DNA of 64,000 nucleotides from Gammaproteobacteria bacterium (GCA_047601185.1 JASGJS010000001.1:1153118-1217117), one strand, 5' to 3'. Shown: positions 37,685 to 42,088, counted from the stretch's first letter. A program made the numbers and translations. The notes: a model not told the origin generated them from the sequence alone.

Positions 37685-40315
37685 ATGGAAATTTTAAACC
37701 TAAAAGTTTTAAAAGGGCCTAACTATTGGTCAAATTTCAGAAAAAAGCTCATTGTTTTGGAGCTTGATCTTAAGCGTTATGAAGCCATTCCCACTGACCA
37801 GATCGAAGATTTTCCCGCACTGTTGACCCATTTAATCCCTTCCCTCCATACCCATCATTGCTCGGAAGGTCAGGAAGGGGGATTTGTTAAGCGTCTGCAG
37901 CAAGGGACTTGGCTAGGCCATGTTATAGAGCATGTTGCATTAGAATTACAGACGTTGGCGGGGATGGACTGTGGATTTGGTCGAACCCGCTCAACCGCTA
38001 AAAAAGGTGTCTACTATGTGGTGTTTTCCTACGAAATTGAAGAAGCGGGGATTTATGCTGCGCAGGCCGCTGTTCAATTAGTCAGTGCTTTGGTGCATTT
38101 TAAAAGTTATCCTTTTTTATTGCGCGATATTCAGCAACTGAAAAGAATATTTGCCGCAAAAAGTTTGGGTGTAAGCACGAAAGCCATCCTTCGAGAGGCA
38201 AAAAAGCGCAATATCCCTTACACCCATTTGGAAGATGACACCTCTTTAGTGATGCTGGGGCAAGGTTGTCATCGTCGCTTAATCTCTGCCACGATTGGTC
38301 ATGCCACCAGTTGCATTGGGGTGGACATCACGGCTGAAAAAGATCTCACCAAAAATATGTTGTCGGCAGCTTTTATTCCTGTGCCGGAAGGGAAAGTTGT
38401 AAAAGATTTCAATGACTTGAGGAAAGCTTTAAAGGTGTTAGGTTATCCTGTGGTAATTAAGCCGAGAGACGGCAATCACGGCAGGGGCATTACCACCCAT
38501 ATTCTGAACCAGCAACAAGCCATGGCGGCTTTTGATGTGGCTAAAACAGTATCAAAAACTGTTATTGTTGAACGGTTTGTGGAAGGTTCTGATTACAGAC
38601 TGTTAGTGGTAAATTATCAATTGGTAGCGGCGGCTAAGCGAGTGCCCGCTTTTGTGGTGGGGAATGGGCAATCTACCCTCCAACAGCTGATCGATCAAGA
38701 AAATCAAAATCCTCAACGAGGCGAAGGCCACGAAAATTATTTAACTAAGATTGTTGTGGATGAACAAACATTAATGATTTTAGCCAGCGTGGGTTTGACG
38801 CTAGAAAGTATTTTGCCCGCACAGCAGATATTATATTTAAAACACACCGCTAACATTAGTACGGGAGGTGTGCCGATGGATGTCACCAAACATATCCATC
38901 CCCAAAATAAACTGTTAGCGGAGCGAATTGCTCGGCTGGTCAATTTAGATATTTGCGGTATTGATCTAATCGCCAAAAATATTGAAACACCGATTTTAGA
39001 AAATCAGGGACGAATTATCGAAGTGAATGCTGCGCCCGGTCTGCGTATGCACATGAATCCTCAATTGTCTCATGATGGATCAATTGCTCAACACGTGATG
39101 GATATGCTGTATCCCAATGATGCGCCGACTCGCATTCCACTGATTGCGGTCACTGGCACCAATGGGAAAACCACTACCGTACGACTGATTGCCCATTTGG
39201 CAGCACAAGCTGGACATAAAGTCGGCTTCACCACGACCGATGGCATTTATATTAATCATGAACGCGTTTATACGGGAGATTGTAGCGGGCCGAGTAGTGC
39301 CCGTGCAGTGTTGCAAGATCCTTTAATTGATTTTGCGGTATTAGAATGCGCGAGAGGGGGGATATTGCGGCAAGGGTTAGGATTTAATGCCTGCGATATC
39401 AGCATTTTATTAAATGTGTCAGAAGATCATTTAGGACTAGAGGGCATTGAAACGCTAGAAGATTTAGTGCGAACCAAAAGTGTGGTGGTCAGGAGCACAC
39501 GCGCTGAAGGCACCGCTATTTTAAATGCAGATGATGATTTGATTTATGAATTGAGGGAAGAATTATCTTGTCAAATTGCTTTATTAAGTTTACGGGATGA
39601 TAACCCAAGAATCCTTGCGCACTGTGCAAATGGTGGGCTTGCCGCTTATATTTCTGAAGGGTTTATTGTGGTCCGCCGCAATCACGATCTCACCAAAGTC
39701 GTGAAGCTTGAAAACATCCCTTTAACCCATGGCGGCATGGCGCAGTGCATGATACAAAATCTGCTCGCCGCTTTATTAGCAGGCATTGCCAGCCAATTTA
39801 CTTTAGAGCAAATTGTTCAGTCTCTGGTGAGTTTTATACCTTCTGCGCAAAACTTGCCCGGACGAATGAATTTATTTCATTTTGATCATTGCAAAGTGTT
39901 AATCGACTATGCCCATAATACAGACGCTTTTATTCAATTGCAGCAATATGTCCAAAAAATAACGATGGGCAAAAAGGTTGGTATTATCGGTGCGCCAGGC
40001 GATCGCCGTCCACACGATATCAAACAAATTGGATTTTATGCCGCGCAAATGTTTGACCAAATTATTATTCGACATGATAAAGATGGTAGAGGGAAAACTA
40101 ATGAAGAAATTACCTGTTATTTAATGGAAGGGATAATGGCTGTCAATCCCAATTTAGATGTCTCTATTCTGTCAGATGAAAAAGCGGCATTATTGTACGC
40201 AATTAAGACCGCAGAAGCTGGCACTTTTATTACGTGTTGTTTTGATAAAGTATTTGAAGCGATAGATTTATTGAAAAATTTGCCGAAATTAACGAAGCAA
40301 GAGGAAATATCATGA
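37685..40315 (+). CDS. cphA: Cyanophycin synthetase CphA
   Basis: 876 aa. Characteristic N-terminus MEILNLKVLKGPNYWS...GHVIEHVALELQ, an ATP-grasp middle domain and a Mur-ligase-like C-terminal domain (GTNGKTTT). Confidence 0.85.
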   Translation: MEILNLKVLKGPNYWSNFRKKLIVLELDLKRYEAIPTDQIEDFPALLTHLIPSLHTHHCSEGQEGGFVKRLQQGTWLGHVIEHVALELQTLAGMDCGFGRTRSTAKKGVYYVVFSYEIEEAGIYAAQAAVQLVSALVHFKSYPFLLRDIQQLKRIFAAKSLGVSTKAILREAKKRNIPYTHLEDDTSLVMLGQGCHRRLISATIGHATSCIGVDITAEKDLTKNMLSAAFIPVPEGKVVKDFNDLRKALKVLGYPVVIKPRDGNHGRGITTHILNQQQAMAAFDVAKTVSKTVIVERFVEGSDYRLLVVNYQLVAAAKRVPAFVVGNGQSTLQQLIDQENQNPQRGEGHENYLTKIVVDEQTLMILASVGLTLESILPAQQILYLKHTANISTGGVPMDVTKHIHPQNKLLAERIARLVNLDICGIDLIAKNIETPILENQGRIIEVNAAPGLRMHMNPQLSHDGSIAQHVMDMLYPNDAPTRIPLIAVTGTNGKTTTVRLIAHLAAQAGHKVGFTTTDGIYINHERVYTGDCSGPSSARAVLQDPLIDFAVLECARGGILRQGLGFNACDISILLNVSEDHLGLEGIETLEDLVRTKSVVVRSTRAEGTAILNADDDLIYELREELSCQIALLSLRDDNPRILAHCANGGLAAYISEGFIVVRRNHDLTKVVKLENIPLTHGGMAQCMIQNLLAALLAGIASQFTLEQIVQSLVSFIPSAQNLPGRMNLFHFDHCKVLIDYAHNTDAFIQLQQYVQKITMGKKVGIIGAPGDRRPHDIKQIGFYAAQMFDQIIIRHDKDGRGKTNEEITCYLMEGIMAVNPNLDVSILSDEKAALLYAIKTAEAGTFITCCFDKVFEAIDLLKNLPKLTKQEEIS

Positions 40316-41169
40316 CGCCTAAAGGTAAGTTATTTTTAATTGGTGGCGCTGAGGACAAAGGAGAGGAAGACAAAATTTCTTCTCCTAATATCGAGTTTGG
40401 TCGATTAGAAATTTTAAGCGAATTATTAGCCGCGGCTAAACACCACAAAATTGAAATTATTACCACAGGTTCACGATTTCCAGATGAAGTTAAAAAAACC
40501 TATCAAAACGCTTTTCATAAATTGCATTATCCAAATCCAGGCTTTTTATCCATTAAGAATCGCTTTGAAGCCAATGATCCGCATTTTTTGGAAAGAGTCG
40601 AAAAAGCTTGTGTGGTGTTTTTTTCCGGTGGGGATCAATTTCGATTGTCGACAATATTAGGTGGCACGCAAATGACGGAAGTGATTAAACATCGCTACCT
40701 TCATGATAAAAATTTTGTGGTGGCTGGTACCAGTGCAGGTGCGATGGTGATGTCAACCGTGATGATTAAAGAGGGGGGCAAAGAGGAAGCTTTATTTAAC
40801 CATGATATTAAAACCACAGCAGGATTAGGGTTGTTACAAAACTGCATTATCGATACGCATTTTATTAAGCGTGGTCGTTTTGCTCGGTTAGCGCATGCCA
40901 TCATTATAAATCCAGAACAACTGGGCATAGGTTTAGGTGAAGATGCAGGATTAATGATTGAGCATGGCACCCATGCTGAATGTCGAGGTTCAGGCATGGT
41001 GGTCATTATCGATGGGAGATATATCGGACAAACCAATATCACCGAAGCCCAAGATGCGGATCCTATTTTTGTTGAAAATCTCAAAGTGCATTTATTAGTT
41101 AAAGGATGCCGATTTTCGATTAAAGAGCGCGAGTTAGCAAATCCTGCCATAGGAAAATTATATGAATAA
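40312..41169 (+). CDS. cphB: Cyanophycinase CphB (peptidase S51)
   Basis: LFLIGGAEDKG and the catalytic Ser in GTSAGAMVMS. Overlaps cphA by 4 nt. Confidence 0.8.
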   Translation: MTPKGKLFLIGGAEDKGEEDKISSPNIEFGRLEILSELLAAAKHHKIEIITTGSRFPDEVKKTYQNAFHKLHYPNPGFLSIKNRFEANDPHFLERVEKACVVFFSGGDQFRLSTILGGTQMTEVIKHRYLHDKNFVVAGTSAGAMVMSTVMIKEGGKEEALFNHDIKTTAGLGLLQNCIIDTHFIKRGRFARLAHAIIINPEQLGIGLGEDAGLMIEHGTHAECRGSGMVVIIDGRYIGQTNITEAQDADPIFVENLKVHLLVKGCRFSIKERELANPAIGKLYE

Positions 41170-42088
41170 ATTTGGCATTGCAATTCATGGCGGCGCAGGC
41201 AATGAAACACCATTTTTAACGGCGCATCTTAAAGAATATGAAGCAAGTCTACAGGAAGCTCTGCAAATAGGTTATGACATTGTCAAAGCGGGCGGTGCTG
41301 CATTAGACGCTGTGCAAGCCGCCGTCATGAATCTCGAAGACAATCCTTTATTTAATGCAGGTCGAGGTTCGGCTTTAGATGCCAAAGGCGAAATTGAAAT
41401 GGATGCCGCCATTATGGATGGAAGAGAAGTGGCAGCAGGTGCTGTGTCCATGGTCCGTTATGTTAAAAATCCCATTTTATTGGCCAGAACTATTATGAGT
41501 AAGACCAAACACGTGTTTCTATCGGGTTATGGCGCTTTAGAATTTGCCAAAATTAATGAGTTGAGTTTAGAACCTGAATCATATTTTGTCACCGATCATG
41601 AGTATGCGATATTTCTGAATGATTCAAAAGATGCTGAACTGCAACATACTATGGAAAAAAAGGTGTATGGCAGCACTGGCACCGTCGGCGCTGTTGCCCT
41701 CGATCAAGCAGGCAATATTGCTGCGGCGACTTCAACTGGCGGCATCAGTAATAGTTTACCCGGAAGAATTGGCGACAGTTGCGTGATTGGCGCAGGGTGT
41801 TATGCCAATAATCGCAATTGCGCCGTTTCTGGCACTGGAATCGGCGAAATTTTAATTACTGATGTGATTGCGCATACTATCGCAATGTCGGTTGAGTTTA
41901 AGCAATATCCACTTCAAAAAGCCTGTGATTATGTAATACTGGAAAGAGATCGTCCCAAACAAGGTAGTATTGGAGTGATTGCGATTGATAAAGCGGCGAA
42001 TATCGGCATTTCCTTCAGCTCAGAAATCATGAAGCGGGCGTGGATGACGTCTGAGCAAGCACAACCTCAGGTGAAAATTTATCCATGA
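41162..42088 (+). CDS. iaaA: Isoaspartyl dipeptidase / L-asparaginase (Ntn hydrolase, IaaA-like)
   Basis: GIAIHGGAG...GTVGAVALD with the autoproteolytic Thr. Third gene of the cyanophycin catabolic set. Confidence 0.8.
   Translation: MNKFGIAIHGGAGNETPFLTAHLKEYEASLQEALQIGYDIVKAGGAALDAVQAAVMNLEDNPLFNAGRGSALDAKGEIEMDAAIMDGREVAAGAVSMVRYVKNPILLARTIMSKTKHVFLSGYGALEFAKINELSLEPESYFVTDHEYAIFLNDSKDAELQHTMEKKVYGSTGTVGAVALDQAGNIAAATSTGGISNSLPGRIGDSCVIGAGCYANNRNCAVSGTGIGEILITDVIAHTIAMSVEFKQYPLQKACDYVILERDRPKQGSIGVIAIDKAANIGISFSSEIMKRAWMTSEQAQPQVKIYP

Follow-up and report, generated by a model that had tools for sequence, protein, structure and literature searches.

Sharon & Schmeing (2023) found cphA1, the gene for type 1 cyanophycin synthetase, in 1,614 of 27,349 complete genomes (~6%). 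Only 79 of the 1,614 are cyanobacterial and 114 are gammaproteobacterial, and cphA1, cyanophycinase and iaaA genes are clustered in 49 of the 153 genomes that contain all three (PMC10206079). In Legionella longbeachae, Cazalet et al. reported in 2010 a putative cyanophycin synthase, cyanophycinase, and dipeptidase, and proposed a role in energy supply during starvation (PMC2824747). Here we describe a cphA-cphB-iaaA operon at positions 37685-42088 of a 64,000-nucleotide (nt) stretch of DNA from an uncultured gammaproteobacterium (GCA_047601185.1, JASGJS010000001.1:1153118-1217117), referred to below as the window. The three genes are intact, belong to the expected families, keep their catalytic residues, and lie in an order that is conserved in relatives. 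We consider the locus most probably to be a functional three-gene cyanophycin operon of the type common in Legionella, with a probability of roughly 0.92. On this reading, which is drawn from sequence, active enzymes would allow the cell to keep a store of nitrogen, arginine, and aspartate.

A first-pass annotation of the window had proposed a complete pathway for cyanophycin synthesis, breakdown, and dipeptide cleavage, and this is borne out by equivalog hidden Markov models (HMMs) for CphA and CphB, by Pfam for IaaA, and by the catalytic residues. It had also described such operons as rarely found beyond cyanobacteria and a few heterotrophs, which the survey figures given above do not support, and as notable in a Legionellales-like host. 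Nor is the latter point supported, since the trio has been known in L. longbeachae for more than a decade and occurs in further Legionella-type contigs that we examined, including those of L. israelensis and L. jordanis.

Architecture of the cphA-cphB-iaaA operon

The operon comprises cphA (37685-40315, plus strand, 876 amino acids (aa)), encoding cyanophycin synthetase 1; cphB (40312-41169, plus strand, 285 aa), encoding an intracellular cyanophycinase of peptidase family S51; and iaaA (41162-42088, plus strand, 308 aa), encoding an Ntn-hydrolase of the isoaspartyl aminopeptidase/plant-type asparaginase family. The cphA stop and cphB start codons share a 4-nt overlap, ATGA, in a junction that reads ...TCATGACG. 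The cphB/iaaA junction, which reads ...TATATGAATAAATTT, contains an 8-nt overlap (ATGAATAA). Three back-to-back genes with overlaps of these lengths had been put forward in the first-pass annotation, and a listing of open reading frames (ORFs) returns exactly these three on the plus strand. A purine-rich, Shine-Dalgarno-like stretch is present 8-13 nt 5' of each start, including both internal starts. The overlaps imply a single transcript with coupled translation, and the three genes would probably be co-transcribed and regulated together.

Neither frameshifts nor truncations interrupt the operon; every start codon and overlap is preserved, and the proteins match their profiles over the full length. 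Whole-protein HMM E values are 0 for CphA, 1.5e-60 for CphB, and 5.6e-98 for IaaA, which places the three-gene assignment far beyond chance.

CphA is a CphA1-type enzyme

CphA scores 1162.7 bits with the curated equivalog model TIGR02068 (cutoff 850), in a match that spans positions 1-860 of the 862 in the profile, and also passes NF010623 (1061.2 bits, cutoff 877). Pfam domains are PF18921 at aa 25-138, RimK/ATP-grasp at aa 218-320, Mur_ligase_M at aa 489-699, and Mur_ligase_C at aa 726-850. Residues 1-864 align to the solved CphA1 of Synechocystis sp. UTEX2470 (7lg5) with 842 bits and 46% identity, and the Trichodesmium CphA1 structure scores 807 bits. Alignment to solved CphA1 gives approximate boundaries, all on the plus strand, for an N domain (aa 1-159, 37685-38161), an ATP-grasp or G domain (aa 160-483, 38162-39133), and a Mur-ligase-like or M domain (aa 484-876, 39134-40315). 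Chains of the CphA2 type, which are without most of the M domain, match residues 141-588 only, and the window enzyme is therefore a CphA1.

ATP-grasp and Mur-ligase domains are each common to many other ligases, and weaker matches to GshAB, MurE, and RimK were seen for this protein, as might be expected were it some other fusion of the two domains and not a cyanophycin synthetase. However, the GshAB, MurE, RimK, and Ddl models each match one domain, far under their own cutoffs, whereas TIGR02068 spans the whole protein. The protein also has the N domain specific to CphA (PF18921) with its Cx19HxxEH site, and CphA-specific G-domain residues that differ in GshF, namely the P-loop His (H265) and R454. 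We assign the alternative next to no probability, and count it as ruled out by the TIGR02068 score, PF18921, and the end-to-end alignment to CphA1. The first-pass identification of the 876-aa ORF as CphA is thus upheld by a score above the equivalog cutoff and by the G- and M-domain motifs.

To map individual residues, experimentally important positions were taken from published work (PMC9262961 and PMC9427784) and located by alignment to solved structures and close homologues. The N domain contains a complete Cx19HxxEH site (C59, H79, E82, and H83), plus H57, R70, and F67, all identical at their positions. The G domain keeps K219, K259, H265, R305, R319, N390, S392, G452, and R454, which correspond to K220, K261, H267, R309, R323, N394, S396, G456, and R458 in Su/Te numbering and are all identical. 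E215 (Su/Te) is replaced by D214, the clade consensus. For the M domain the test set was the P-loop GTNGKTT, the Mg ligands, and the D585-H586 pair; the P-loop (G491-T497, including N493, K495, and T496), T518, E554, D581-H582, R727, and H744 are all kept. The substitutions relative to the cyanobacterial enzyme (E215D, F692C, E90T, and E607R) are each the majority state in 74 close homologues.

A further difference lies at the tetramer interface, where Trp672 is replaced by Asp668 in the window CphA. This position is T, E, D, or K across the Legionella-type clade, and the Trp is mostly retained in Bacteroidota relatives. Loss of Trp672 suggests that the oligomeric state of Legionella-type CphA1 may differ from that of the cyanobacterial enzyme.

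By its domain content, CphA would build multi-L-arginyl-poly-L-aspartate, with the ATP-grasp G domain adding Asp to the C-terminus of the chain and the Mur-ligase-like M domain joining Arg to the Asp side chain. The zinc-peptidase-like site of the N domain would cleave nascent polymer into primers, so that no external primer would be needed. The Cx19HxxEH motif is present in 83% of nr70 CphA1s (PMC9262961), and because it is complete here, primer-independent cyanophycin synthesis is predicted for the window CphA.

The putative degradative enzymes CphB and IaaA

CphB passes the cyanophycinase equivalog TIGR02069 with 204.8 bits against a cutoff of 126.6, matches PF03575 with 62.3 bits, and scores 170 bits to a solved cyanophycinase (7uqv). 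Synechocystis CphB reportedly, in work attributed to Law et al. in 2009, has the triad S132, H174, and E201 and a pocket formed by Q101, D172, Q173, R178, R180, and R183. In an alignment whose register was fixed by the S132A mutant chain 7uqw, Ser141 (GTSAG), His183, and Glu210 of the window protein align with Ser132-His174-Glu201. The pocket positions Q109, D181, R187, R189, and R192 are present, and Thr182 stands at the equivalent of Q173. The N-terminus begins MTPKGKLFLIGGAEDK and by inspection has no hydrophobic segment resembling a signal peptide, so CphB is expected to act in the cytoplasm. There the Ser-His-Glu peptidase would cleave the polymer into beta-Asp-Arg dipeptides.

The location of CphB bears on whether the operon might serve mainly in the use of external cyanophycin or beta-aspartyl peptides, as a cyanophycin utilization locus in which CphA would synthesize little or nothing. 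Scavenging loci made up of a cyanophycinase and an isoaspartyl dipeptidase are known (PMC10206079), and several MFS transporter genes occur in the same variable stretch of the window as the operon. However, such scavenging loci are typically without cphA1 (PMC10206079), whereas the window cphA is uninterrupted and its product keeps all three active sites; a CphB that has no signal-peptide-like N-terminus is expected inside the cell; and the MFS genes lie 3 kb or more from the operon, on the opposite strand and of different composition. We therefore regard a locus devoted to scavenging as highly improbable, and retain a three-gene operon for making and re-using cyanophycin as the best explanation.

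IaaA matches the Pfam family PF01112 (Asparaginase_2) with 328.3 bits against a cutoff of 27, and is closest to E. coli IaaA (2zak; 210 bits over aa 4-296). Residues T174, T192, R202, D205, T225, and G226 of the window protein match the catalytic set of the E. coli enzyme (EcAIII), which we take to be a Gly/Thr self-cleavage site with its Thr nucleophile, T197, R207, D210, T230, and G231. Self-cleavage is accordingly predicted at Gly173/Thr174, and the resulting Thr-nucleophile hydrolase would split beta-Asp-Arg into free Asp and Arg.

Several observations weigh against a functional cyanophycin operon or narrow what can be claimed for it. A scan of 36600-42300 detected no convincing promoter or terminator, with matches below those in shuffled sequence (10 versus 14.3; 2 versus 4.9). 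Thr182 of CphB replaces a pocket residue (Gln173), yet an alignment of four Legionellales-type CphBs shows the motif "DTHF" that includes it without variation, which makes the change look like a trait of the clade rather than damage. IaaA falls below the cutoff of the enterobacterial beta-aspartyl-peptidase equivalog NF007589 (249.9 versus 567 bits), and we therefore assign it at the family level; its substrates would be isoaspartyl dipeptides or asparagine, and a role in beta-Asp-Arg cleavage is suggested by operon context. Assays of IaaA enzymes from such clusters have shown promiscuity, for beta-aspartyl dipeptides in the case of Roseivivax halodurans IaaA, and no dedication to beta-Asp-Arg (PMC10206079), so specificity for this dipeptide should not be assumed for the window IaaA. 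Finally, our literature search found no paper showing cyanophycin production in any Legionellales.

Relatives and conservation of gene order

The window CphA is 100% identical to GenBank entry MFT3742207.1, "MAG: cyanophycin synthetase [Gammaproteobacteria bacterium]", which is encoded on a 1.71-Mb contig. The next matches are metagenomic proteins at 59% identity, several named Legionella species at 55-57%, and many Bacteroidota at 53-56%. In a neighbor-joining tree calculated without support values, the window CphA groups with two proteins (P0002 and P0003) inside a Legionella-type clade that is sister to a Bacteroidota clade.

The order cphA-cphB-Asparaginase_2 recurs unchanged in L. israelensis (L088), L. 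jordanis (L089), another Legionella (L090), and the metagenomic contig L001, which encodes P0002. Two further contigs, one from a Legionella sp. (L002) and one designated L004, have cphA-cphB only. CphB is 51-67% identical to the cphA-adjacent CphB of six relatives, and IaaA is 58-71% identical to the third operon gene in L001, L088, L089, and L090. All three window proteins rank L001 nearest, with identities of 59% (CphA), 67% (CphB), and 71% (IaaA), which indicates that cphA, cphB, and iaaA have traveled or evolved as one module. The genes that flank the operon differ in every genome examined. A gene for a Ceg10-like type IV secretion system effector lies near the cph genes in L001, the closest metagenomic relative.

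The operon lies in a variable stretch between two tRNA genes

The operon sits in a 36-kb stretch bounded on the left by tRNA-Phe(gaa) (9629-9704, plus strand, 3' end inward) and on the right by tRNA-Leu(caa) (45823-45909, minus strand, 3' end toward the operon), the latter identified by ARAGORN and Rfam. At the gathering threshold, Rfam detects three tRNAs in the whole window and no match in or beside the cph operon. GC content at third codon positions (GC3) is 0.22-0.45 between the two tRNAs and 0.45-0.55 in the flanking core genes, which are rpoD-dnaG-purEK-mutY on the left and 4HBT-queA-tgt-yajC-secDF-plsY on the right. GC3 values for cphA, cphB, and iaaA are 0.39, 0.33, and 0.37. The overall GC content of the operon is 42.5%, compared with 43-44% for Legionella cph operons and 46-48% for the local core. 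The stretch also carries three IS3-family transposase genes, several MFS transporter genes, two-component regulators, and AAA/DUF4143 genes. The first-pass annotation had placed the operon downstream of an island; its position is corrected here, as the operon lies inside the same low-GC3 stretch between tRNA-Phe and tRNA-Leu.

In the three closest relatives by SecD (L085-L087, 69-72% identity), the backbone tRNA-Leu(caa)-4HBT-queA-tgt-yajC-secD-secF-plsY-RNase T-tRNA-Leu(cag)-DUF2797 is retained. Beyond tRNA-Leu(caa), the cph genes are missing and their place is taken by genes for Sel1/SPOR proteins and citrate synthase. The absence of cph genes at the matching position shows that the cph region is variable within the lineage. 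The stretch shows flanking tRNA genes, atypical composition, and absence from the syntenic site in relatives, all of which are features of a tRNA-associated genomic island. No integrase gene was found in the stretch, only IS3-family transposases (rve), and a search allowing up to three mismatches gave no att-like duplicate for the 3' end of either tRNA. We therefore use the term variable region and do not define an integrative island.

Lateral gain of the cph region is plausible. A fuller scenario is that the module was gained from a Legionella-like donor into the tRNA-flanked region of a small-genome, probably host-associated gammaproteobacterium. There it would let the cell store Arg and Asp through a life cycle that is biphasic or alternates between feast and famine, and its CphA1, without the interface Trp, may assemble differently from the cyanobacterial enzyme. 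We offer this scenario tentatively and think it, taken as a whole, rather doubtful. Recent transfer could also mean that the module is a mere passenger, silent or decaying in a reduced genome. This would fit its location among IS3-family transposase genes and dispersed repeats in a low-GC3, tRNA-flanked stretch, and its absence from the syntenic position in the three relatives. Against it stand the uninterrupted genes described above, with full-length profile matches and intact starts and overlaps, and the finding that every mapped catalytic residue is the consensus of its clade. A silent or decaying passenger is thus very unlikely, and a working cyanophycin operon remains the preferred reading.

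The tRNA-Leu(caa) junction is a rearrangement hot spot in this lineage. The three relatives, which are gammaproteobacterial metagenome-assembled genomes with contigs of 0.3-1.3 Mb, encode Sel1/TPR-rich proteins, and in L085 a gene for a 1383-aa Sel1-repeat protein is inserted between queA and tgt. In the window, the intergenic region that separates tRNA-Leu(caa) from the 4HBT thioesterase gene contains two tandem-like 51-nt direct repeats (45997-46047 and 46081-46131) with 78% identity and a spacing of 84 nt. Elsewhere in the variable stretch, an IS3-family transposase gene (rve/rve_3, 244 aa) is present in identical copies at 20508-21281 and 26339-27112, with at least 300 nt at 100% identity. 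The copies are 5.8 kb apart and bracket two MFS transporter genes and a gene for a small P-loop protein, an arrangement that is a possible composite transposon. The third IS3-family transposase gene, at 13075-13926, is different.

Repeats and genes neighboring the operon

The first-pass annotation had noted a repeat of a family termed A just upstream of the operon, and a copy is indeed found by repeat search and blastn at 37494-37596 on the minus strand, in a 1-kb intergenic region, ending 89 nt before the cphA ATG. Repeats of this family are 60-100 nt long and occur in at least eight copies in the window (blastn), in both orientations and in both island and core DNA. The other copies are at 7605-7652, 10978-11070, 20395-20456, 45001-45062, 55716-55799, 59364-59483, and 60725-60822, of which 7605-7652 and 55716-55799 are in core regions. 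A conserved 9-bp hairpin (CCTTCTCCC-N5-GGGAGAAGG) gives a modest fold (z = -2.5). Family A is a dispersed element resembling miniature inverted-repeat transposable elements or repetitive extragenic palindromes, and is context for the operon rather than a specific feature of it. Promoter-like hexamers at 37548-37577 and 37579-37608 overlap or follow the copy upstream of cphA, and such sites are not above the level of shuffled sequence. This copy is inverted relative to those at 10978-11070, 20395-20456, and 45001-45062. We considered whether the inverted copies at 37494-37596 and 45001-45062 form the ends of a mobile 7.5-kb cph unit, and rejected this because the family has at least eight copies, some of them in the core.

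At the other end of the operon, an 11-bp inverted repeat (GCACAACCTCA ... TGAGGTTGTGC, with a 16-nt loop) was read from the sequence at 42059-42096, without assigned strand. It takes in the iaaA stop codon, has no T-run, and is absent from the terminator-scan output. The repeat is located in the short gap before a convergent 640-aa ORF, whose stop codon is at 42117, and may form an end-of-transcript hairpin. The 640-aa ORF (42117-44039, minus strand) contains a long run of Ser residues along with segments rich in Lys or in Pro and Ser, and no Pfam or NCBIfam match was found for it. Orphans of this kind are frequent among the effectors that host-associated bacteria secrete.

Divergent from cphA on the minus strand is a very AT-rich, three-gene cassette (33229-36658, GC3 0.22-0.24). 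Its products are a 358-aa MFS-like membrane protein, a 422-aa ATP-grasp enzyme whose similarity to the L-amino-acid ligase BacD and to Ddl is no more than marginal, and a 343-aa protein that has a faint GntD/hydroxylase match (E 7e-4) and none in Pfam. Database searches gave no solid match for any of the cassette proteins, which could constitute a small peptide-ligase biosynthetic or export module. A functional link between this cassette and the cph operon was considered and is rejected for now on account of its opposite strand, much lower GC3, own flanking repeats, and marginal matches.

The repeats that bracket the cassette are 292-nt direct repeats at 32529-32820 and 36882-37173, which are 87% identical. 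Each contains a plus-strand match to Rfam PtaRNA1 (32694-32770 and 37047-37123) that is below threshold, at 36.8 and 35.1 bits against a gathering score of 47, with E values of ~3-5e-5 in kilobase-sized searches. PtaRNA1 is the antisense antitoxin of the XCV2162 type I toxin-antitoxin system (Rfam). The repeat nearest to cphA is accompanied by a 15-bp terminator-like hairpin and a 69-aa ORF (36844-37053, minus strand). The two repeats may be copies of a horizontally spread type I toxin-antitoxin locus.

Comparison with known systems

The closest described counterpart of the window operon is Llo2537-Llo2536-Llo2535 of L. longbeachae NSW150, whose three genes have the same predicted roles (PMC2824747). 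The operons of L. israelensis, L. jordanis, L090, and L001 agree with the window operon in gene order and direction as well. Sequence identity to these Legionella-type operons is only 55-59% for CphA, 51-67% for CphB, and 58-71% for IaaA. The host itself is not a Legionella, and no named genus occurs among its 120 best SecD matches, all of which are at least 57% identical. Matches to its Tgt, a protein too conserved to place the host, are 66-73% identical and scattered across many orders of gammaproteobacteria.

CphA1 of Synechocystis sp. UTEX2470 (7lg5, 7lgj, and 7lgq), which is characterized in structure and mechanism and is primer-independent, shares the N-G-M architecture of the window CphA, and each catalytic or metal-binding residue that was mapped in the three active sites is conserved between the two. 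The two differ at the tetramer interface, as described above (Trp672 versus Asp668). Francisella tularensis, an intracellular gammaproteobacterial pathogen, also encodes a cyanophycin synthetase (FTT1130c), and a transposon mutant of its cphA had lowered expression of a virulence-gene reporter.

The locus touches on the role of cyanophycin in Legionella, Francisella, and related host-associated bacteria, for which our literature search found no experimental test; cultured Legionella with the same operon would be no harder to use for such a test than the window locus. Beyond annotation its meaning is slight: an uncultured gammaproteobacterium can probably store and re-mobilize arginine and aspartate, and the Legionella-type CphA1 clade gains one divergent member. 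Nor does the operon differ in kind from the cphA1-cphB-iaaA clusters described elsewhere, such as that encoding Roseivivax halodurans IaaA (8dqm; PMC10206079). It is an ordinary operon of a known kind, in a lineage where one is expected, and its CphA is already correctly named in GenBank.

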